Below are positions 15,053 to 58,211 of a DNA stretch of 64,000 nt, in pieces (the first letter of the stretch is position 1; the number at the start of each line of letters is the position of its first letter). The DNA is taken from the NCBI GenBank assembly GCA_965238075.1, contig OZ250173.1, positions 2,784,001 through 2,848,000 of the forward strand, in the 5' to 3' direction. The notes beneath the pieces were generated by a model, which saw only the letters and a program-made list of their open reading frames with translations, searched no databases and was not told where the DNA came from. The stretch is from Candidatus Entotheonellaceae bacterium. GTDB lineage: Bacteria; Tectomicrobia; Entotheonellia; Entotheonellales; Entotheonellaceae. The position numbers and the translations under genes were made by a program.

Positions 15053-15500
<448 letters not shown>

Positions 15501-19016: not shown

Positions 19017-19202
19017 TCATGCCGTCGTTCCCTCCGTGAATCGTCCTTCAATCCAGCCTTCGATGCGCGTCAGTCGCTCTTTGACGGTCGCCATGTCCGC
19101 TTGCAAGGCGTCAATGCGTCTGCTCAAACGGTCGAACATGCGCCACTGCAAGCCGACAACGGCCACCCCAACGCCAATGATTGCCCAGAATTCAGCACTC
19201 AT
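19017..19202 (-). CDS. 61-aa protein, N-terminal TM plus coiled coil; cut off from its RBS by an IS
   Basis: MSAEFWAIIGVGVAVVGLQWRMFDRLSRRIDALQADMATVKERLTRIEG...; native AAGGA RBS lies beyond the IS at about 20709-20714. Confidence 0.75.
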   Translation of the reverse strand: MSAEFWAIIGVGVAVVGLQWRMFDRLSRRIDALQADMATVKERLTRIEGWIEGRFTEGTTA

Positions 19203-19204
19203 GC

Positions 19205-20699
19205 GAGCCACTTGCAGAATTGCGTGTACGAGTGGGATTTTCTTTCTCCGTGTCAAGCACGGGGCAGGCTCTGGGGCTGATTGGTGGACATTGGGGCCGC
19301 TTTCTGATTCTGTTGAGTTGTCAAACAACCGAATCAGGAGGAACGACCCCAATGGCCTTACGTGAGATACTATCGAGTTACTGGTCTTGCTTTCAAGCGC
19401 TGCTGTTCCCGCAGCTTGAGGAAACGATCGGGGCGCTGGGGGAACGCCATCAGCGCTTCGTCATGGTGCTCGAATGGGTGCGGGTGGAAACGCTGCTGCC
19501 GTACCAGCACCGGCGTCGCGGCTGTCCGCCAAGCGACCGCGCGGCCTTAGCCCGCGCCTTCATCGCCAAGGCCGTCTTCGCGCTGGTTAGCACCCGGATG
19601 TTGCTTGATCGTCTGCGCCACGACAGCACCCTGCGCCGGTTGTGCGGCTGGCGTAGCGTCAAGCACATTCCGAGCGAGGCGACGTTTTCACGTGCCTTTG
19701 CCGAATTTGCCGACAGCGCCTTGTCGAGCCACCTGCACGAGGCGCTGATCAAACGCACCCAGGGTGAGCGTCTGGCAGGCCATATTTCACGCGATTCGAC
19801 GGCGATTGAAGGGCGCGAGAGACCGACCCCGAAGGCACCGCAGCCGGCCAAGCCGAAGCGAGGGCGCGGGCGTCCGCGCAAGGGCGAGGAGCGTCTCACG
19901 GAGCCGCGCCGTCTGGAGCGCCAGCGCAACATGACCCTGCCGGAGATGCTCGCCGACTTGCCGTACGCCTGTGACATTGGCGTCAAGCGCGACGCCAAGG
20001 GCTATCAGACGTCATGGAGCGGCTACAAGTTGCATATTGACGCGGCCGACGGCGCCATCCCGGTCAGTTGCCTGCTTACCTCGGCGTCGCTGCACGACAG
20101 CCAAGTCGCCATCCCGCTGGCGACCCTGACGGTGGGGCGAGTCCGCAACCTGTATGACCTGATGGACAGCGCCTACGATGCCCCGGAAATCCGCGCCCAC
20201 AGCCGCGCCCTGGGTCATGTTGCGATCATCGACGTCAACCCCCGCAGCGGCGCGCGCAAGCAGGCGCTGCGGCAGGAGACGCAGGCACGGCGTGCCTGTG
20301 GGTTGGTCCTGTCTGAGGAGAGACGTTACCACGAACGCTCGACCGTCGAGCGTGTCAATGGTCGCCTCAAGGATGAATTCGGAGGTCGCAGCGTGCGCGT
20401 GCGCGGCCATGCCAAGGTGCTGTGTCATCTGATGTTCGGGATTGTGGCGCTCACGGTTGATCAGTTGATGCGCTTGGTGACCTGAAGCTGGTCTCGCGGC
20501 CCCGTTTCCTCCATCCCGGCACGCACTGCTGTCCTGTACGCAGGGGGAGAGTTGCGTCCGCATCGCAAGACGGGAGCCGGAACTCGGCACCGCCATGGCT
20601 GAATTCGTGGCAGTTGGAACCACCGACGGCAAATGATTCACCGTACGGTCTCATGACAACCGCTCCGAGGCCAAACTAGCGGAGTTTTGCAAGTGGCTC
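19205..20699 (+). mobile_element. Complete IS, 1495 bp (IS5/IS1182-like DDE)
   Basis: Terminal IRs GAGCCACTTGCAGAA / GAGCCACTTGCAAAA; 4-bp TSD ATGC at 19201-19204 and 20700-20703. Confidence 0.92.
19352..20485 (+). CDS. DDE transposase (IS5/IS1182-like)
   Basis: PSEATFSR, RDSTAI, GYKLH, MDSAYD, RSTVERVNGRLK; AGGAGG RBS. Confidence 0.93.
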   Translation: MALREILSSYWSCFQALLFPQLEETIGALGERHQRFVMVLEWVRVETLLPYQHRRRGCPPSDRAALARAFIAKAVFALVSTRMLLDRLRHDSTLRRLCGWRSVKHIPSEATFSRAFAEFADSALSSHLHEALIKRTQGERLAGHISRDSTAIEGRERPTPKAPQPAKPKRGRGRPRKGEERLTEPRRLERQRNMTLPEMLADLPYACDIGVKRDAKGYQTSWSGYKLHIDAADGAIPVSCLLTSASLHDSQVAIPLATLTVGRVRNLYDLMDSAYDAPEIRAHSRALGHVAIIDVNPRSGARKQALRQETQARRACGLVLSEERRYHERSTVERVNGRLKDEFGGRSVRVRGHAKVLCHLMFGIVALTVDQLMRLVT

Positions 20700-21003: not shown

Positions 21004-21053
21004 ACGGGTTCGCGCCGCCCCGTGGAAATTTTGCGACGTCACGGAAAAAGTAC
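21004..21053 (+). repeat. About 50-bp direct repeat, copy 1
   Basis: 42/50 identical by eye to 23958-24007. Confidence 0.75.
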
Positions 21054-21102
21054 GACAGCGCCAGGGGTCGGGTAAGGAGGCGTCATCGCTGTACCCCCCA
21101 AG

Positions 21103-21245
21103 GTAGGGTCGAAAGCTGGCGCGGTGGCCACAGGGTCGGGGAGTCGCGGTTGGCCGGAGTTTCGCCATCTTCCGGTGCCTCAGTCCGTCCCTTAACCCCG
21201 TCCCCAGCTTCCGCCACGTCGTACGCAGCATGCGGATTTCCCACA
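21103..21245 (-). mobile_element. Group II intron 3' remnant (partial domain V plus domain VI)
   Basis: Minus strand GGGAAATCCGCATGCTGCGTACGACGTGGCGGAAGCTGG...ACCGCGCCAGCTTTCGACCCTAC; no RT ORF and no 5' domains. Confidence 0.8.
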
Positions 21246-21338
21246 GCCGAGGTTCCTTATAGGGAATCACTCACAAGGTGCGACTTCAGGTCGTCGCACG
21301 AAGCGCATATGAGAGCCGTCACGCGTTCGGCTCTGGAT

Positions 21339-21427
21339 GTAGGTCGGGTTAGCCGCAGGCGTAACCCGACATTCCGACGCGCTGTCCCCCGACCTCTGTC
21401 GGATTACGCTACGCTAATCCGACCTAC
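21339..21427. repeat. Inverted doublet of GTAG-family REPs (REPIN-like)
   Basis: GTAGGTCGGGTTAGCCGCAGGCGTAACCCGACA ... TGTCGGATTACGCTACGCTAATCCGACCTAC. Confidence 0.85.
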
Positions 21428-21615
21428 GGTTATACCGGTGCCGGGTTTGATCCCGGATCAAAGCCTGCCCCCGACTTGAATAGGGGGCCAGCGGTGATTC
21501 CTCCAGTCGGGTGAGGCCATATGCGCTTACCCTGATCCGTTGGGTGACGTGTTTGCGCTTTACCATTGGGTGTACTTCTCTCATTGAGTTATTCACCCGT
21601 GAGTGGGGTCACGCG

Positions 21616-21769
21616 ATGAACGATGCGCAACGCAACCTGCTTGCCAAATCCCTGGCCGACATTGCCAAGGGTGTCTTTATTGCTGCCCCTATCGCCCGCG
21701 GCACAGGCAAGATAACCCCGTGGGTGGGCCTGGCCGTCGTGGGTGGCGCAATGGGCTGCTACGTTAGTG
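21616..21769 (+). pseudogene. Small membrane protein gene interrupted by an IS (remainder at 23106-23128 and 23829-23843)
   Basis: Removing both insertions restores the ORF MNDAQRNLLAKSLADIAKGVFIAAPIARGTGKITPWVGLAVVGGAMGCYVSAHNLLAGGDRHD*. Confidence 0.75.
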
Positions 21770-23099
21770 CTGAGGTTTTGCAATCTGGCCTGACTATCGT
21801 AGAGTACGCGCCCTTTTCTTCCTACCTTCCAAGACTTCCGCAGGAGGCTCTCTTATGCCGACGACTGTGGACTTCCCAACCCTTGTGAAACAAGCATTGG
21901 CCCTTTTCGGCGATGTCTTTGACAACGAACCCGCCCGGCGGCATTTTGCTGAGTATCTCACCGGTTTGATGGTGGCAGAGCGTAAAAACATCAGCGCCAT
22001 CAATCGCCTATTTGCCGTTACGACGGATCAATCCTGCCTCAATCGCTGGCTGGTCGAGGCGTCTTGGGACGCGGCGGTGCTCAACGACCGCCGTCTGGCC
22101 TGGTTGCAGGACAACCCGAAGACCCGCTACAGCCCTCACGGCGTCATTGCCATTGATAATACCCTGGTCGATCACAGCGGCAAGCTCATTGAGGACGTGG
22201 GCTGGTTGTGGGACCATGCCCAGCAGCGCCACGTCATCGCCCACGACTACCTGATTTCCAACTACGTCTGTCCCTCAGGCAGTCATTATCCGATCGAGTG
22301 GCGGAGGTTCAGGAAAAAGGACAGCTGCCCGTCCGAGGACTTCAAGGATCACACGACGCTGTGCCTCGACTTGATTGACGATGCCCTGGCACGGGACATT
22401 CCCGGCGATTTCACCTTTGACAGCTATTTTACCCACGCCAAGATACTGAACCATATCCATGCGAAACAGCGTCACTACGTGGGGGCTCTGAAGCTTAACC
22501 GCAAGGTGGTCTTTGAGGGCCGAGAACAGAAGCTGCAAGAGGTGGCTAGCCAGATACCCTTTAGAGACAAGAAAGCGGTGCGTGCGGGCAAGCGCTGCTA
22601 CTGGTATTTCAGCAAACGGATGCGCCTTGCGACAGTGAGTCATCCGGTTCGCATCGTGTTGTTTTGGAAGGACCGTTTTGCGACTGAGGCGAGCAAGGCC
22701 TTGGTGAGCAACCGGGTGGTTTGGGAGGTACTTCGCATGTTGAGGGTGTACCGCCATCGTTGGACGGGCACCGAGACCTTTCATCGGGATGGCAAGCAGC
22801 AATTGGGGCTAGGAGATTGTCAGGTGCGCAGCGGCAAGGGCCAGACCCGCCACGTGTATCTTGTCAGCGCCGCGTACAGTCTTCTGATGCACGCCATGCA
22901 CGCGAGCAGTCCGCATGAATGGACTCGTCGAACGCTGACGACGATTGGCGAAGCCTGTCGGGCGGTGAAGGGAGAACTTCTCGAACGCTTGGTGGACTGG
23001 ATCGTGGACAAACTAAGCGATGACGACTGGTCCATGTCACAGATTAAGGCTGTCTTGGCTCAGGCGTGACCGGGTAGAAGGCAAAATGCAAAACTCCAG
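21770..23099 (+). mobile_element. Complete IS, 1330 bp (IS701-like)
   Basis: Imperfect IRs CTGAGGTTTTGCA / CTGGAGTTTTGCA; TSD TTAGTG at 21764-21769 and 23100-23105. Confidence 0.9.
21855..23069 (+). CDS. IS701-family DDE transposase
   Basis: YLTGL..ERKN, IAIDNT, FDSYF, YRHRW..ETFHRDGKQQLGL; AGGAGG RBS. Confidence 0.92.
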   Translation: MPTTVDFPTLVKQALALFGDVFDNEPARRHFAEYLTGLMVAERKNISAINRLFAVTTDQSCLNRWLVEASWDAAVLNDRRLAWLQDNPKTRYSPHGVIAIDNTLVDHSGKLIEDVGWLWDHAQQRHVIAHDYLISNYVCPSGSHYPIEWRRFRKKDSCPSEDFKDHTTLCLDLIDDALARDIPGDFTFDSYFTHAKILNHIHAKQRHYVGALKLNRKVVFEGREQKLQEVASQIPFRDKKAVRAGKRCYWYFSKRMRLATVSHPVRIVLFWKDRFATEASKALVSNRVVWEVLRMLRVYRHRWTGTETFHRDGKQQLGLGDCQVRSGKGQTRHVYLVSAAYSLLMHAMHASSPHEWTRRTLTTIGEACRAVKGELLERLVDWIVDKLSDDDWSMSQIKAVLAQA

Positions 23100-23266
23100 T
23101 TAGTGCTCACAATTTGCTTGCCGGAGGTGGCTTTGCATAAAATGCCGCTGATTCACGGGACCTTTTGTGCAAGATGACTTCCTGCACAAAACCCGGTTGG
23201 ATATAGGCTTTCTCCGCCGAAGTCCGACAAACCCGGCACCAACCAAGCCGGAATACCGTCAGCCTG

Positions 23267-23275
23267 TGATACAAT
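23267..23275 (+). promoter_or_regulatory. Extended -10 promoter inside the cassette
   Basis: TGaTACAAT about 35 nt upstream of the passenger ATG. Confidence 0.5.
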
Positions 23276-23309
23276 CTCTCGATTTTCACCATGCCGGGGG
23301 CCCCTCACC

Positions 23310-23723
23310 ATGCAGGACTGGATCAAAGAAAACAGCATTCCCATTACGATTGTCATCTCGACTGTCGTCGCCCTTGCCACAGTCTTGACCGTCATCCAGA
23401 CCTCCACCAATTCAATCCACTACCGACTCGACGACATGAACCACCGCCTGAACGACATCAGGGCCGAGATGAACCACCGCTTCGATGCCCAAGACAAGTA
23501 CATCAACCAGCGCTTCGACGCCGTAGACCACCGCTTCGATGCCCAAGACAAGTACATCAACCAACGCTTCGACGCCGTAGACCAACGCCTGGAGGGCCTG
23601 GAAAATGACGTCTCGGAACTCCGCCAACTCACCGTCAGCATCAGCGAACGCGTCTCCCACAACGAAGGACAAATCGACGTCATCAGGCAACAACTCCAGA
23701 CCGCCGACGCGCCCTCGCCCTGA
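23310..23723 (+). CDS. Membrane-anchored coiled-coil protein (cassette passenger)
   Basis: N-terminal hydrophobic helix, RFDAQD/RFDAVD repeats, C-terminal ERVSHNEG. Confidence 0.85.
   Translation: MQDWIKENSIPITIVISTVVALATVLTVIQTSTNSIHYRLDDMNHRLNDIRAEMNHRFDAQDKYINQRFDAVDHRFDAQDKYINQRFDAVDQRLEGLENDVSELRQLTVSISERVSHNEGQIDVIRQQLQTADAPSP
23473..23584 (+). repeat. Intragenic 54-bp tandem duplication
   Basis: Two units starting at 23473 and 23527, differing by one synonymous base (CAG/CAA). Confidence 0.92.
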
Positions 23724-23835
23724 ACGCAGCGTAAGCTCACCCGACGTCCACAGGTCCTGACGGTAACCACGTCGGACACGACTGGCCTTTTGTGCAAAAC
23801 CGGCTCTCTGTGCAAAGCCGCCGGAGGTGACCGTC

Positions 23836-23940
23836 ATGACTGAGTTGGATGTGGTCGGCCTCGTCTTCTGTGCCCTGGTGATTGTTGGCCTTGTGTGGTC
23901 CATCATGGATGCCCGTAAGCGCAAAGCCAAATCCAAGTGA
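23836..23940 (+). CDS. 34-aa single-TM protein with basic tail
   Basis: MTELDVVGLVFCALVIVGLVWSIMDARKRKAKSK*; GGAGGT RBS 7 nt upstream; below the ORF-track size cut-off. Confidence 0.7.
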   Translation: MTELDVVGLVFCALVIVGLVWSIMDARKRKAKSK

Positions 23941-23957
23941 TAGCCGGATCCACGGAA

Positions 23958-24007
23958 ACGGGGTCACGCCGCCCCGTGGAAGTTTTGCGACGGTGCGAAA
24001 AAAGTGC
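23958..24007 (+). repeat. About 50-bp direct repeat, copy 2
   Basis: Matches 21004-21053. Confidence 0.75.
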
Positions 24008-24481: not shown

Positions 24482-25972
24482 ATGACCTATGTATCTCGAG
24501 TACTCGTTCTACTGTTAGTAGGGCTTTTCATGATGAGCGCGTCGGCTTCGGCCGACGACCGGCTGACGGTTAGCGGTAACATGGATTTCCGTTTTCTCAT
24601 GTTGGAGAACTATTCCAATGCTGATCGCAACTACACGGACGCGGTGCTGGGGGGAGACGGTAACGTCCTTCAACAGCGGGGCGATGAGGATTCGCTGTCA
24701 TTTCTTCACCAGCGCCTCAATTTGAGGTTTTCGGTAGAGGCGTTGGAAAACACCAAGGTTGTTCTTCAGACGCACGTGGATAAGGCGTGGGGTCTACACA
24801 CCTACGAAATCGGCGTTGGCTCCTACAGTAGCGACAACTGGGCGGTTGAAGGGTACTGGTTGGAAGGCCTGATTCCAGGCACCGCGGCGAAGTTCGAGCT
24901 TGGTGTTCCTTATTTCGCTGCCGAGTCCGGCGGGTGGGCTGCAGCCAACAAGATTTTTAACACCGCTGCCCCCGGCGCAACCCTGAGCGCCCCGCTCGGT
25001 GACACGATCAGCACCTACACGTGGTTTTCGTGGATCGGGTCGGACCTTGACGGCTATCTTTCGGCCTACGGTGGCCAGGATGCTCATGGCGACGACTGGG
25101 CTCTCGGGACCCGTGCCACCTTCACGCTTGCGGAAGGTCTGGAGGCTGATTTAATTTATGCCTACCATTTCACGGAATGCGGTCGAATGGAGAGGGCAGC
25201 GCAAGAGACGCCCACGGGCTGTGATACGGGCGCTTTATACGGTTCGGGCAGCAATACCGCGCATGAGGAAAACCGCCACTGGATCGGCAGCACCGTGCGT
25301 TACGATTATGGCGATTTCAGCTTTTCGCCTACCCTGATCCTGTATATGGCCGATGATGAGCTGGCGGGGAAAACCGAGTCCATGCTGGTCGACGTGCGCG
25401 CCAGCTACGACATGGGCCCGCTGTCGCTTTCGGGCCGGTTTGTGTACACGCCGGGTAGTGGAGTCAACTCGGATGGCACACAGCGCACCGACAAGGACTA
25501 TGACGTGATCGGTGTCTGGGGCATCCCTCATGCTAGCCAGTGGTTTAGCTTGTTTGGCAATTCCTCCGGCAGTCCCACCTTTAACGACTTGGGGCCCCTG
25601 CTGGTCGGCGATTCCGTTCAGGGGAACATCAGGCACGAGAGCTTCGGTCTGGTGCACTTCGCCGCCAAGGCAGAATATACGCTGACCCCGCAGACGTCCA
25701 TTGGGGCGGCCTTGGGTCTCTTCAATACTGCCGAAGATACTTCAGGTATGCCGAGGGATTCGGCGCTGGCGGCTACCTACGCTGGTGGGTCGAACCTTGC
25801 GACCGAGGTCGACGTGTGGCTGCATTATAATCTCTACTCCAACACCACCATTTCCTTTTTCGTGGCTTATGCCATGATGGGCGACGCTCTGGACCTGACG
25901 ACGACGGATGGCACGACGTACGAATCCCAGGACGCGATGGGCGCCGGTGGCAGAGTGGTTTACAGCTTCTAA
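24482..25972 (+). CDS. Outer-membrane beta-barrel protein / porin
   Basis: Signal peptide (ASA-D), alternating amphipathic strands, C-terminal YSF; AAGGAG RBS. Confidence 0.85.
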   Translation: MTYVSRVLVLLLVGLFMMSASASADDRLTVSGNMDFRFLMLENYSNADRNYTDAVLGGDGNVLQQRGDEDSLSFLHQRLNLRFSVEALENTKVVLQTHVDKAWGLHTYEIGVGSYSSDNWAVEGYWLEGLIPGTAAKFELGVPYFAAESGGWAAANKIFNTAAPGATLSAPLGDTISTYTWFSWIGSDLDGYLSAYGGQDAHGDDWALGTRATFTLAEGLEADLIYAYHFTECGRMERAAQETPTGCDTGALYGSGSNTAHEENRHWIGSTVRYDYGDFSFSPTLILYMADDELAGKTESMLVDVRASYDMGPLSLSGRFVYTPGSGVNSDGTQRTDKDYDVIGVWGIPHASQWFSLFGNSSGSPTFNDLGPLLVGDSVQGNIRHESFGLVHFAAKAEYTLTPQTSIGAALGLFNTAEDTSGMPRDSALAATYAGGSNLATEVDVWLHYNLYSNTTISFFVAYAMMGDALDLTTTDGTTYESQDAMGAGGRVVYSF

Positions 25973-26079: not shown

Positions 26080-26278
26080 TTCCATCATTCCATGCACCTT
26101 CCTCGAGCGCTACCCGAAGACTGGCCTCTCCTCACCTTCTTCAACCAACCACCGCGGTCTCACTTGGCCGGTGTCCTGCCAAGCGACCGCACACACAAAG
26201 ACGAGCCAAGGTTGACTTAGCAGCCCGTCTTCCGACACTATGTCCTACCGCAAAGCACCGACCCACAGGGGAAATACC

Positions 26279-26668
26279 ATGCCAACGGTTGATACGCTGA
26301 AACTCAAAACCAGGCTTTCGGAAAGCGGTATGCCTGAATCCCAGGCGCAGGTTCTTGTTGAAGAACTCGATGAGGCACTGAGCGCCGCGATTTCTCGTGA
26401 GACCGCGACAAAGGCTGACGTGGTCGAGTTGCGCGCCTTAATCCACGGCCTGGACGAACGACTCACTGAGTTCAAGACCGACAACGCAAAACAGCTCGAC
26501 GCACTCAGGAGCGATACCGGCAAACAACTCGACGCACTCAAGACCGATCCTGCCTCCATGAAGACTGAGATTCATGACATAAAAGGCGAGCTCAAGCTGT
26601 TGCGTTGGATGATTGGCGCTACGTTGACTATCACTATCGGCATTGGGGTCAGGTTACTGTTCATGTGA
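26279..26668 (+). CDS. DUF1640/CCDC90-like coiled-coil protein with C-terminal TM anchor
   Basis: DTLK...L..SGMPESQAQ head, ATKAD neck, 11-residue repeats (KQLDAL), LLRWMIG followed by TM. Confidence 0.85.
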   Translation: MPTVDTLKLKTRLSESGMPESQAQVLVEELDEALSAAISRETATKADVVELRALIHGLDERLTEFKTDNAKQLDALRSDTGKQLDALKTDPASMKTEIHDIKGELKLLRWMIGATLTITIGIGVRLLFM

Positions 26669-54511: not shown

Positions 54512-54622
54512 ATGACGGTTTCAACCAAGCTGATGACCGCCGATGAACTCCTCAAGCTGCCCGACGACGGCAACCCGGTATTCGACGGATTCAGCGCTGA
54601 GGTGCGCGACTTGTTTCGTTAA
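54512..54622 (+). pseudogene. Internally deleted Uma2-family endonuclease relic (36 aa)
   Basis: MTVSTKLMTADELLKLPDDG-NPVFDGFSAEVRDLFR*: typical Uma2 N-terminus fused to typical Uma2 C-terminus. Confidence 0.7.
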
Positions 54623-54658
54623 CCTGCATCCTGATATGCAAAAAGGAGCTCTTACGCC

Positions 54659-55873
54659 ATGGCGCAAAGCACCGCATTAGCGGGTATCAAAGTTCTTGAT
54701 TTGACACAATTCGAGGCCGGGACATCGTGCACCGAGGCGCTCGCCTGGCTGGGTGCCGACATTATCAAGGTCGAAAATCCCGACGGCGGCGACCAGGGAC
54801 GTAGCGCGTCCACCGACCAGGATGGCGTTGATTCGCCTTATTTCATGCTGCTCAACGCCAACAAGCGCAGCATCACCCTGAACCTGCGCACCTCCCGCGG
54901 CCGCGAGTTGTTCACGGAGATGCTGAAAAAAGCCGACATCATGATCGAGAATTTCGCCCCTGGAACGATCGAGCGGCTGGGCTTTGGCTTTGACGCGGTG
55001 CATGAGATCAACCCGCGTGTCATCTACGCGCAGATCAAGGGCTTTGGGCCGGGGCCGTACGAGAATTACGTCAGTTTCGACATGATCGCGCAGTCTGCCG
55101 GCGGTTCGCTGAGCCTGACCGGCACGCCGGAGACGGAACCGCTGAAACCCGGTCCGACCATCGGCGATACCGGCACCGGGCTGCACTGCGCCATCGGCGT
55201 TCTGGCGGCGCTGCATCAGCGACAGCAAACCGGCAAGGGGCAGCGTATCCAGGTGGCTATGCAGGACGCCGTAATCAACTTCAGCCGCATCGCCTTCGCC
55301 CGCCAAGCGCTGAGCGGCGAGGCCGCCGTCAGGTCGGGCAATCGCAGCGCCCTCGGCACCACGGCGCCCAGCGGGCTCTATCCCTGCAAGGGCGGCGGGC
55401 TGAACGACTACTGTTTCATCTACACCAGCCGCGCCGGCAACCGGCACTGGGACCGGCTGCTGAAGGCCATTGACCGCGAGGACCTGATCGGCGACGAGCG
55501 GTTCAATTCGCCGCAGAAGCGCTGGGCCAATCACGACGAGGTGGACCGCCTGCTGACCGAATTCACCCAGAGCCGCACCAAGCGGGAAGTCATGCAAACC
55601 CTGGGCGACGCCGGGGTTCCCGCCGGTGCGGTGTACGACACGCTGGAACTGACCGAGGACCAAGCTTTGCAGGACCGAGAAATGATTGTCACGGTGGATC
55701 ATCCCGAGCGTGGCAAGTTCACCCTGCCGGGATGGCCGGTCAAGATGTCGGATTCCCACGTCGACGTCGATCGCTCCCCGCTGCTCGGTGAGCACAACAG
55801 CGAGGTCTATGCCGAATGGCTGGACCTGACGCCTGACGATCTGGAAGACCTGAAATCGCAGGACGTCATCTGA
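54659..55873 (+). CDS. Class III CoA transferase (formyl-CoA transferase/CaiB-like)
   Basis: LDLTQFEAG, NANKRSITLN, ENFAPG, IGDTGTG catalytic Asp, PLLGEH. Confidence 0.92.
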   Translation: MAQSTALAGIKVLDLTQFEAGTSCTEALAWLGADIIKVENPDGGDQGRSASTDQDGVDSPYFMLLNANKRSITLNLRTSRGRELFTEMLKKADIMIENFAPGTIERLGFGFDAVHEINPRVIYAQIKGFGPGPYENYVSFDMIAQSAGGSLSLTGTPETEPLKPGPTIGDTGTGLHCAIGVLAALHQRQQTGKGQRIQVAMQDAVINFSRIAFARQALSGEAAVRSGNRSALGTTAPSGLYPCKGGGLNDYCFIYTSRAGNRHWDRLLKAIDREDLIGDERFNSPQKRWANHDEVDRLLTEFTQSRTKREVMQTLGDAGVPAGAVYDTLELTEDQALQDREMIVTVDHPERGKFTLPGWPVKMSDSHVDVDRSPLLGEHNSEVYAEWLDLTPDDLEDLKSQDVI

Positions 55874-55875
55874 GT

Positions 55876-57033
55876 TTACGGCGCCGCCCCGTCTCCGCGG
55901 CGCCACAGGGTGATGAGCGCCACGGCCATCATGGCGCTCGTGGTGACCAGCGGAAATCCTACCGCGCCCATCAGGGCGATAGCGCCGCCCGCCAACGGCC
56001 CGCCGGACAGCATGCCCAACTCCCAGGTCAGGATGAAGGCCGCGTTTGCCGCGGCCATGCCGCCGGTTTGGAAACGGCTGCCCAAGAGCGTCAATCCCGC
56101 CGTGTAGAGACCCAGGCTGATCCCCCCGCTGCAAAACGCCAGGGCATACAGGGGCACCGTCGTCCGGATGAAGGCGTGCACCAGCAGGCTGGACCCGGCC
56201 GCTGCCAGAGCCATGTGAGCCAGCAGCCGGCGGCGATCGAGTCGATCCACCGCCCAACCGACCGGCGCCTGCAAGAGAACCCCGCCCGTCAGATAAGTGG
56301 CGTGCAGCCACACCGCGTCTCCCTGCGTCAATCCGGCGCTTACCCCGTAAAGCGCCATGAGCCCCAGGGCCGAGCCCTGCGCGATGCCCATCATCAATGC
56401 CGAGGCCATCAGCCTTGGCGCTTGTCGGACCCGGACGAACAGGTCGGCTGGGGGCATTTCACTCGTCGGCGGGGCGCCCTTGCGCCCGAGGGGAATCAGG
56501 GCCGTTGCCGCTACCGACAGAATGATCATGATGAAGAAGGGGAAATTGCCGCTCATGTCCAAAAAATCGAGCGAAGCGGAGCCGGCCGCGGTGCCGCCGA
56601 TGAAGCAGGCCACGTAGAGGGACAGGATGCGTCCGCGGCGGGCATCGGACGCGGCCTGATTGACCCAGCTTTCGCTGGATATCCAGTGCAGGGCGAGCCC
56701 GAGTCCGGCGACGAACCGGCAGGCCGTCCAGGCGCCAAACCCTGCCTGCCACATCATGCCGAGCAGGGCGAGGGCAAACAGGCTGGCGCCCAGGCCGATG
56801 GCCATCGGGTAGCCGATGCGCCTGAGAATGCGAGTGGTGAGGGGGGCGATGCACAGAACCGCCACGGAGGAGGCGGCTGCGTTCAGTCCGATCCATCCTG
56901 CGGTGACGCCGAGGTCGTGCAGGCGCAGCGGGACGAGCGGCAGGAACATACCCACGGCAAACCCGAGCAGCACGTTGTTGAGCAGAACCGCTGCAATGCC
57001 GCGGGCTTGCTGGGAGAGGAAAGTCATGCGCAT
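55876..57033 (-). CDS. MFS transporter
   Basis: About 12 TMs, ESWVN..RG, DRLDRR; start uncertain (57033 or 57027). Confidence 0.85.
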   Translation of the reverse strand: MRMTFLSQQARGIAAVLLNNVLLGFAVGMFLPLVPLRLHDLGVTAGWIGLNAAASSVAVLCIAPLTTRILRRIGYPMAIGLGASLFALALLGMMWQAGFGAWTACRFVAGLGLALHWISSESWVNQAASDARRGRILSLYVACFIGGTAAGSASLDFLDMSGNFPFFIMIILSVAATALIPLGRKGAPPTSEMPPADLFVRVRQAPRLMASALMMGIAQGSALGLMALYGVSAGLTQGDAVWLHATYLTGGVLLQAPVGWAVDRLDRRRLLAHMALAAAGSSLLVHAFIRTTVPLYALAFCSGGISLGLYTAGLTLLGSRFQTGGMAAANAAFILTWELGMLSGGPLAGGAIALMGAVGFPLVTTSAMMAVALITLWRRGDGAAP

Positions 57034-57333: not shown

Positions 57334-58122
57334 GTGGCACGATTGGCTGGTAAAGTGGCGGTGATAACAGGCGGGGCGGGCGGCATCGGCCGTGCCGCAG
57401 GTCGTCTTTTCGCTGCGGAAGGCGCCCGGGTGTTGTTGGTGGACGTCAACGAAGGGGCGCTGCAGCAGACCGTGGATGACATCGCGGGGGGCGCCGCCAG
57501 CTATGCGGTGGCGGATACGACGCAGCCCGTTTCGGTGCGGCAATTCCTCCATACGGCCGTTGAACGATACGGCGGCCTGGACGTCCTCCTGGCCAACGCC
57601 GGCGTTGAGGGCGAGCTCCACGCCATCGCGGATTACCCGGTCGAGGTGTTTGATCACGTCATGGCGGTCAACGTCCGCGGCGTCTGGCTGGGTGTCAGAG
57701 CGGCCATTCCCCTGATGCGTCAGCGGAGCGGCGGCAGCATCGTAATCACCTCATCGGTCGCCGGCATCCGCGGCTCCGCGGGCATGTCGGCCTACACGAC
57801 CAGCAAGCACGCCGTCATTGGCCTCATGCGCACCGCGGCGCTGGAATGCGCTGCCGACGGCATTCGGGTGAACACCGTCAATCCGGCGCCCATCGAAACC
57901 CGCATGATGCGTTCCCTCGAAGAAATGCGCACCTCATGGCTCGGCACCGACGCAACCGTGGAGAGCGTCAAGGCGTCGCATGCCGCGCGCATCCCGCTGC
58001 GGCGCTACGGCGACCCCGAGGAAGTCGCGCGGTTGATGCTGTTTCTGGCTAGCGACGAAAGCCGCTTCTGCACGGGCGGCGTGTATATGGTGGACGGCGG
58101 TTCTTCGGCTGGCATGGTCTAG
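57334..58122 (+). CDS. Short-chain dehydrogenase/reductase
   Basis: TGGAGGIG, ANAG, YTTSK. Confidence 0.95.
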   Translation: MARLAGKVAVITGGAGGIGRAAGRLFAAEGARVLLVDVNEGALQQTVDDIAGGAASYAVADTTQPVSVRQFLHTAVERYGGLDVLLANAGVEGELHAIADYPVEVFDHVMAVNVRGVWLGVRAAIPLMRQRSGGSIVITSSVAGIRGSAGMSAYTTSKHAVIGLMRTAALECAADGIRVNTVNPAPIETRMMRSLEEMRTSWLGTDATVESVKASHAARIPLRRYGDPEEVARLMLFLASDESRFCTGGVYMVDGGSSAGMV

Positions 58123-58130
58123 GGCGCTGG

Positions 58131-58139
58131 TGCTAGAAT
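58131..58139 (+). promoter_or_regulatory. Extended -10 element upstream of the RND operon
   Basis: TGcTAGAAT. Confidence 0.45.
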
Positions 58140-58211
58140 GCTCGCCATGGCACGCAAACCGTATGCTCAAGGAAAATTTTCCGGGCTGTCCTGCCCCATT
58201 GGTACACTTTA

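Follow-up and report, generated by a model that had tools for sequence, protein, structure and literature searches.

The window analysed here is a stretch of 64,000 nucleotides of contig OZ250173.1 (positions 2,784,001 to 2,848,000; assembly GCA_965238075.1) from a Candidatus Entotheonellaceae bacterium, whose genome we refer to as G000. Within it, positions 23129-23819 hold a 691-bp cassette with inverted-repeat ends and a single passenger gene, which a sequence-only reading had described as a transposase-free mobile insertion cassette (MIC) flanked by an exact 9-bp direct repeat. Both the ends and the direct repeat are present. The cassette lies between two exact copies of GCCGGAGGT (23120-23128 and 23820-23828), whose length agrees with that of the target-site duplications (TSDs) in the element family described below. 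The identity between the flanks extends to 10 nt (GCCGGAGGTG), because the cassette itself begins with a G. Its terminal inverted repeats are 14 nt long and of the GGCTTTGCAyAAAA type. The left one, GGCTTTGCATAAAA (23129-23142, plus strand), can be aligned in register with autonomous relatives at their transposase-proximal ends, and the right one, GGCTTTGCACAGAG on the minus strand (23806-23819), is of the transposase-distal type according to its sequence and to the alignment of the ends.

Both ends also carry sub-terminal motifs, and the three extra copies that had been noticed at 23163, 23183 and 23788 are indeed there. On the left, TTTTGTGCA and TGCACAAAA form an opposed pair separated by 11 nt (23163-23191), their offsets from the end being 35-43 and 55-63; on the right, TGCACAAAA stands on the minus strand (23788-23796), at offset 24-32. 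We presume that the opposed pair represents extra transposase-binding sites. The whole window contains three matches to TTTTGTGCA/TGCACAAAA (23163-23171, 23183-23191 and 23788-23796), all of them within the cassette, a number reached in 1 of 100 shuffles. Regarding GGCTTTGCA, it occurs exactly twice, at 23129-23137 (plus strand) and 23811-23819 (minus strand), and at least two copies were reached in 18 of 100 shuffles of the window. Single-motif counts alone are not beyond chance, and it is the family evidence that establishes the feature as real.

The only long open reading frame (ORF; >105 aa) inside the cassette is the passenger gene (23310-23723, plus strand). Its 137-aa product starts with a hydrophobic helix followed by a coiled coil with NQRFDAxDKYI-type repeats, and two tandem 54-nt (18-aa) units that are 98% identical (23473-23580, plus strand) are the source of its length variation. 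The orthologue found in G004, one of the six genomes of our genus set (G000 to G005), has 119 aa and is shorter by exactly one 18-aa unit. This difference, together with a ratio of nonsynonymous to synonymous substitutions (dN/dS) of 0.21 between both genes, marks the passenger as a real, length-variable gene, and it is under purifying selection. Upstream of it, at 23267-23275 (plus strand), lies the extended -10 element TG-a-TACAAT (TG-n-TACAAT), promoter-like as read from the sequence, so that the promoter element and the single 137-aa gene reported earlier both stand. No complete -35/-10 promoter came out of a strict sigma-70 scan. Paralogue copies B, C, D and E retain the extended -10 upstream, as does the orthologue of G004, and we infer that TG-n-TACAAT could act as the working promoter of the gene.

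Related elements and an empty site in the genus

A tblastn census of G000 gave 13 paralogue loci, of which three have both element ends, three have one and seven have none; the presence of at least one end at 6 of the 13 ties this promoter-equipped gene family to the cassettes. The both-ended elements are A (the window copy), B (2355637-2356315) and C (1291811-1292544). With a 709-bp query, a second full-length copy was found at 1291807-1292553 of G000, with 68% identity over query positions 1-704. The 9-mers flanking copies B and C match at 7/9 and 5/9 positions, respectively. Copy B is common to G001 (94% identity over 2279 nt) and G003 and is split in G002; it is the older copy. Besides, many paralogues are present in all five other genus genomes.

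The 14-nt end is over-represented in the genus: allowing up to two mismatches, G002 contains 67 occurrences vs 18 for the reversed control, and 23 of them are exact. Paired copies with different TSDs and the same kind of passenger, whose existence had been anticipated, comprise copies B and C of G000, a 551-bp coiled-coil cassette of G001 with perfect ends and the TSD GCCCCAGCC, and a 620-bp coiled-coil cassette of G002 (656014-656633) with a TSD identical at 8/9 positions. Paired copies with different passengers were found as well. Three elements of G002 carry unrelated passengers and are flanked by perfect TSDs: 2582 bp at 4241810-4244391 (ACCTCAGCC), 2811 bp at 3070443-3073253 (GGCTGAACC) and 6087 bp at 696711-702797 (CTGGTAGCG). 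G002 also has a cargo-less 405-bp element (57784-58188) with no clear TSD. Taken together, these ends recur with other 9-bp duplications around passengers of the same kind, around unrelated ones or around no cargo at all, which bears out the MIC-like identity proposed earlier.

The sequence-only reading had also called for an empty site in related strains. None was found for the window copy, and the sister copy C provides one: the sequences to its left and right (91-93% identical) abut in both G005 and G001, and the element is missing from G002 and G004 too. A single GGCTRCGGC-type 9-mer is present at the empty site, and two diverged copies of it surround copy C in G000.

Two further observations concern the same family. 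Two copies of a ~1.8-kb element with a related passenger, at 54576-56341 and 1505538-1507345 of G002 (L050 and L051), have exchanged flanks (ACCGGAATC/CCAACAGCC vs the reverse arrangement), as expected from a ~1.45-Mb inversion by homologous recombination between them. Such elements matter for genome structure as well. Tandem arrays of coiled-coil paralogues without element ends were observed at ~3272455-3282342 of G002 (~16 matches, with a spacing of ~650 bp) and at 1049586-1051816 of G000, which means that the coiled-coil family also grows by tandem duplication.

Candidate transposase and wider family

Four degenerate elements in G002 and G003 contain, beside the proximal-type end, a short open frame that is the remnant of a transposase C-terminus. 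The 31-aa remnant gave no match in Pfam or NCBIfam. A 47-aa query taken from the open frame led to P0001, a 419-aa protein; the alignment spans 66% of the query at 87% identity (E 1e-9). P0001 contains a SWIM zinc-finger domain (PF04434) and a DDE_Tnp_1 domain (PF01609), and its best NCBIfam model is NF033579 ‘IS5 family’, with 117 bits vs a cut-off of 140; on PF01609, the cognate candidates score 66-77.5 bits vs a cut-off of 23. The passenger gene matches no transposase family and tblastn with P0001 gave no match within the cassette, so the interior is not a decayed transposase, an outcome that the sequence-only reading had named as counter-evidence.

We then surveyed 80 metagenome loci encoding relatives of this transposase (44-65% identity). 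An end of the cassette type follows the gene within 150 nt at 29 of them, mostly at 36-78 nt, and further downstream at 25; five loci had too little DNA. In the transposase-proximal ends, the motif offsets are 1, 35 and 55, identical to those of the left end of the window cassette, and the pair at offsets 35/55 was also found in the metagenome elements L263, L249, L243 and L284. Distal ends have direct copies of the motif, the second at offset 24 (L254 and L221), as in the right end of the window copy. At 28 metagenome loci, the left end was in most cases absent within 1.5 kb upstream of the transposase. No second gene proved to be widely conserved upstream of the transposase: the 80 loci gave only small clusters of up to 10 loci, and the passengers were varied.

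[quoted passage not shown] In G042, complete elements have the 18-nt ends GGCTTTGCACAAAAAGTC and perfect 9-bp TSDs. One of them (L325 4562-7516) is 2955 bp long, has both ends, the TSD CACATTGCG, passengers and a gene at L325 5338-6582 for a 415-aa SWIM-DDE protein that is 44% identical to P0001; two further elements, of 4558 and 4517 bp, are flanked by CCCTAAGGT and CCTAAGGTG. An autonomous element with GGCTTTGCA ends, as the sequence-only reading had postulated, is thus found in G042 and in metagenome contigs, and is not found in G000. The G042 elements are also peculiar in their layout. At L325 4455-7620, a 98-bp MITE is followed head to tail by the autonomous element of 2955 bp and then by the first part of a third one, with CACATTGCG between each and the next, and in L324 the two 4.5-kb elements abut, with duplications offset by one base. 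Such a layout points to insertions that recurred at an end already in place or beside it.

In the species-genome collection, at least 120 stretches contain the 18-nt end GGCTTTGCACAAAAAGTC, compared with ~17 expected by chance from simple arithmetic. Their record labels include Acidobacteriota, Verrucomicrobiota, Planctomycetota, Dehalococcoidia, Abditibacteriaceae and Methanocella, among others. The 80 loci fetched among these stretches contain 86 instances of the end, 51 of which have an inverted partner within 2 kb, giving 47 unique pairs. The 9-mers flanking these pairs are identical at 8 or 9 positions in 22 cases (16 perfect and 6 near-perfect), where the chance of such identity for one unrelated pair is ~1e-4. 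The 22 duplication-flanked elements measure from 98 to 1794 bp, and most elements with the 18-mer are short MITEs, the cargo-less siblings with identical 18-nt ends ranging from 98 to 340 bp. Clustering of the ORFs at the 80 loci revealed no common gene beside the 18-mer, with three ORFs in the largest cluster. One of these elements, under a Dehalococcoidia label (L108 2001-3794), measures 1794 bp, shares these ends, is flanked by the duplication CCTGCAGC(T/C) and contains a 469-aa ORF in which we recognized by eye a PLMP-type N-terminus and an HNH motif; we take this ORF to resemble an IscB-type nuclease.

IS1595 was also considered as a parent, on a resemblance of the ends, and was rejected: in none of 12 fetched loci with PF12762, the IS1595 DDE domain, do such ends lie beside the transposase. 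PF12762 gave 45 matches in G002 and none in G000. Many of the G002 matches (for instance in L061, L073-L075 and L077-L078) fall within or beside ORFs resembling DNA methyltransferases, and some of these ORFs adjoin ends of the cassette's element family.

Interpretation and alternative explanations

We consider it highly probable that 23129-23819 is a non-autonomous, passenger-carrying MIC from a family of transposons that duplicate 9 bp and are moved by a SWIM-zinc-finger DDE transposase, a distant relative of the enzymes in the 9-bp-duplicating branch of IS5. The cassette retains both end types of its parent, a proximal end made of the terminal repeat and two opposed TGCACAAAA motifs (offsets 35 and 55) and a distal end made of the terminal repeat and a direct copy of the motif at offset 24, with everything between them replaced by one promoter-equipped gene for a membrane coiled-coil protein. 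It would have entered a small ORF at its 3' end, duplicating 9 bp, an event for which the transposase would have had to be supplied in trans. The SWIM-DDE protein may bind the TGCACAAAA motifs and move such cassettes in trans. Since G000 encodes no cognate transposase, the cassette is probably stranded there.

MICs of Bacillus cereus are derived from the insertion sequence (IS) IS231, and their parent family is IS4/IS231. Like them, our cassette is non-autonomous, has terminal repeats of IS type and a duplication of the parent's length, contains a passenger ORF and appears to depend on a transposase acting in trans. In contrast, its parent would be in the IS5-related SWIM-DDE clade (9 bp), its ends have extra sub-terminal repeats and there is no parent element in the same genome. 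As for MITEs, they are likewise non-autonomous and share the same ends and duplications, and the siblings of 98-340 bp are true MITEs, whereas the window cassette carries an intact, selected and promoter-equipped gene, which makes it a MIC. The IS1595 family has been described to include passenger-carrying ‘transporter IS’, and the autonomous relatives of our cassette resemble these in bearing varied passengers beside the transposase; they differ in the transposase family, and the window copy has no transposase.

The sequence-only reading did not recognize this pairing of end sequence and cargo as a described one. The end type itself has a precedent: it resembles that of an annotated IS5-family IS with 9-bp duplications. 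The IS in question, on the Klebsiella plasmid LC602695 (L301 213-1260), has the ends GGCTTTGTTGCACAA and the 9-bp TSD ATATTGAAC; its transposase, labelled ‘IS5 family transposase’ in the record, reaches 386.8 bits on NF033579 and shares 26% identity with P0001. We take this IS to be a member of the IS903 group, for which ISPam1/ISPam2 are the other examples that we name for comparison. The cassette family shares with the LC602695 IS the 9-bp duplication, ends that start with GGCTTTG and contain TGCACAA, and NF033579 as best model. IS903-group ISs are compact (~1.05 kb), with a single transposase of 307-315 aa and simple ends, while the autonomous relatives of the cassette have an N-terminal SWIM finger (~400-420 aa), multi-site ends and passengers, score below the cut-off of the model and, in G042, reach 2955, 4517 and 4558 bp. 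On these sequence features, the cassette appears to be a MIC of an IS903-like lineage distinct from the classic group. A survey of Paracoccus names MICs, identified in B. cereus, as known non-autonomous elements, and all the IS903-group ISs in the rows shown of its Table 2 have 9-bp repeats (PMC3281130).

Several results weigh against our interpretation. On NF033579, the transposase candidates score 117-130 bits, below the curated cut-off of 140, and 21 of the 80 transposase loci lack an end of the cassette type at up to three mismatches. G000 encodes no cognate transposase (best tblastn E 0.07), and no full-length transposase was found in the six genus genomes, including G002 with its recent-looking elements. 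The nearest other copy in G000 is just 68-72% identical. The orthologue of the cassette in G004 (90% identical) lacks a right end, and any left end that it has is degenerate; its upstream stretch begins with GGCTTTGAAGCGAAGTC, resembling a decayed left end, and this weakly suggests a degraded copy, in which case it would not be evidence against mobility. Finally, no empty allele of the window copy was found, either with its flanks in the five sister genomes or in contigs of public sequencing runs. About 2.9 kb (~21051-23958) are wholly missing from G001 and G005, and in G004 the small ORF downstream of the cassette is truncated by other DNA beside an integrase-like gene. Nine public runs contain part of the stretch, and we examined Logan contigs from four of them (X1, X2, X4 and X9). 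No contig in these runs joins 23128 to 23829, a result of little weight either way, given that contigs drop rare variants. Those of X4 and X9 contain the cassette in the same context, and those of X1 and X2 mainly the IS701-like element described below and fragments of paralogues.

One could argue that the ends are genuine transposon ends used by another mover, either an IS903-like IS5 transposase without the SWIM finger or another IS, and that the SWIM-DDE family is only a neighbour of similar ends. The elements of G002 have perfect ends and duplications in a genus whose six genomes encode no SWIM-DDE gene, and an ordinary IS5-family IS, that of LC602695, has similar ends and a 9-bp TSD. We still judge this very improbable: remnants of the SWIM-DDE C-terminus lie inside four degenerate elements of the genus beside the proximal-type end, G042 contains the transposase alongside an autonomous element and a 98-bp MITE whose 18-nt ends are identical, and the motifs are identically spaced in the window end and in the transposase-proximal ends.

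It could also be proposed that the repeats are regulatory, TGCACAAAA and the terminal sequences being operators for a transcription factor that governs the paralogous coiled-coil genes, that the family spread by ordinary duplication and that the 9-bp repeat is a coincidence. The position of the motifs just upstream of the conserved promoter-like element would fit this proposal, as would the expansion of the coiled-coil family by tandem duplication without ends in the arrays of G002 and G000 (1049586-1051816), and the 7 of 13 paralogue loci of G000 that lack ends. However, the same ends surround unrelated passengers, and in many phyla they bound cargo-less elements of 98-340 bp (with perfect duplications at 16 of the 47 pairs); they lie shortly beyond a DDE transposase gene at 29 of the 80 loci, and the site of sister copy C is empty in G001 and G005. 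The operator explanation is thus largely refuted, and we find it very improbable.

A cassette of a site-specific recombinase (an integron cassette or an integrase-borne islet, with the direct repeat as crossover core) is hardly credible: the repeat is exact at both borders, and the region is prone to rearrangement, with a tyrosine-recombinase-like ORF (L046 4223-5293) and a 35-bp direct repeat nearby in G004, but the flanking 9-mers differ among the copies and share no core, the cassette is bounded by inverted repeats of the kind found in DDE transposons, unlike integron gene cassettes, no integrase gene adjoins it, and the enzyme associated with the family is a DDE transposase.

Returning to the transposon-borne MIC, we tentatively put forward a broader proposal, for which we see slightly less than an even chance. 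The cassette would be the tip of an uncatalogued IS5-like branch present in bacteria and archaea, characterized by a SWIM-DDE transposase, two differing multi-site ends made of TGCACAAAA repeats, 9-bp duplications and habitual passengers, with an 18-nt end that hardly varies; in this genus, MICs with a built-in promoter would have persisted after the loss of the transposase from all sampled genomes and would have helped to seed and scatter the coiled-coil family. Text searches of the literature returned no paper with the 14-mer end and none on a SWIM-finger IS5 clade, supplementary tables such as MITE catalogues being outside their scope. Gene callers show nothing more than a ‘hypothetical protein’ in non-autonomous transposons with passengers, and for that reason such transposons seldom receive an annotation. 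The cassette offers a worked example in which ends, target duplication and sister copies are documented together with an empty site, and in which the parent transposase has been traced. Used as a search key, the 18-nt end and the TGCACAAAA sub-terminal repeats bring up autonomous elements as well as MITEs and cassettes in many phyla. The SWIM-DDE clade itself is probably under-named by automatic annotation, because it scores below the cut-off of the curated IS5 model.

Passenger protein, insertion site and neighbouring elements

Scanning the passenger protein against Pfam gave 38 weak coiled-coil matches (E up to 1), among them PF06825 HSBP1 with 28.9 bits vs a cut-off of 28.6. A total of 685 homologues were found at E <=1e-5, and the names among the 120 listed were two automatic ‘RmuC’ labels. 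PF10805 (DUF2730-like) is a precomputed match on ~36 of these 120 listed homologues and is not among the 25 of the 38 families shown for the passenger. An Atlas search with the passenger returned only unnamed clusters, with scores of up to 0.90. The protein might conceivably span the membrane once (bitopic) and use its coiled coil, variable in length through the repeats, as a tether or spacer, perhaps for envelope functions related to phages, a suggestion that we regard as rather doubtful.

The target of the insertion is a small ORF whose 5' part lies at 21616-21770 (plus strand) and whose 3' end received both an IS701-like element and the cassette. Its frame, cut by the IS701-like element at 21771, resumes in the 21 nt of 23108-23128 and then again from 23829, and ends in a stop codon that overlaps the ATG at 23836; the IS701-like element interrupts it 12 codon positions before the cassette. 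The ATG belongs to a downstream 34-aa ORF (23836-23940, plus strand), which, prior to the insertion, shared this overlap with the stop of the target ORF; an 89%-identical stretch is present in G004. The clean overlapping-gene junction predicted upon excision of the cassette does hold, only after removal of the IS701-like element too.

The IS701-family element (21771-23102, plus strand; transposase 21855-23069) is unrelated to the cassette and scores 180.6 bits on NF033540 vs a cut-off of 150. It is single-copy in G000, and its word depth in public runs is far above that of its flanks (~1700 vs 62 in X9). Contigs from other contexts part from the window at 21770 and 23102-23109, which places the ends of the element, and its duplication is probably the 4-bp GTGC. 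The second neighbouring IS is an IS5/IS1182-like element at 19205-20699, with 20-nt inverted repeats and ATGC as its apparent 4-bp duplication. A small minus-strand gene for a membrane coiled-coil protein has this element just upstream of it, and the site of the element is empty in G005. With apparent duplications of 4 bp, neither IS matches the cassette, just as the sequence-only reading had maintained.

The ~2.9-kb segment that contains the small ORF together with the IS701-like element and the cassette is bounded by a 48-bp direct repeat (21004-21051 and 23958-24005, 85% identical) and lies upstream of a DESULF_POR1-like porin gene (24482-25972). A palindromic repeat at 21336-21435 (arms 21339-21353 and 21413-21427), with at least eight other copies in G000 (79-95% identity), looks like a repetitive extragenic palindromic (REP) sequence or a MITE, and is unrelated to the cassette. 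Two more small genes for membrane-anchored coiled-coil proteins are found nearby, at 19030-19201 (minus strand) and 26240-26668 (plus strand), the latter with a weak CCDC90-like match (25.2 bits vs a cut-off of 33.5), and relatives of these genes are carried at the syntenic locus of G004. Further away, the window encodes a bacterial RNase P RNA of class A at 15055-15494 on the minus strand (312 bits).

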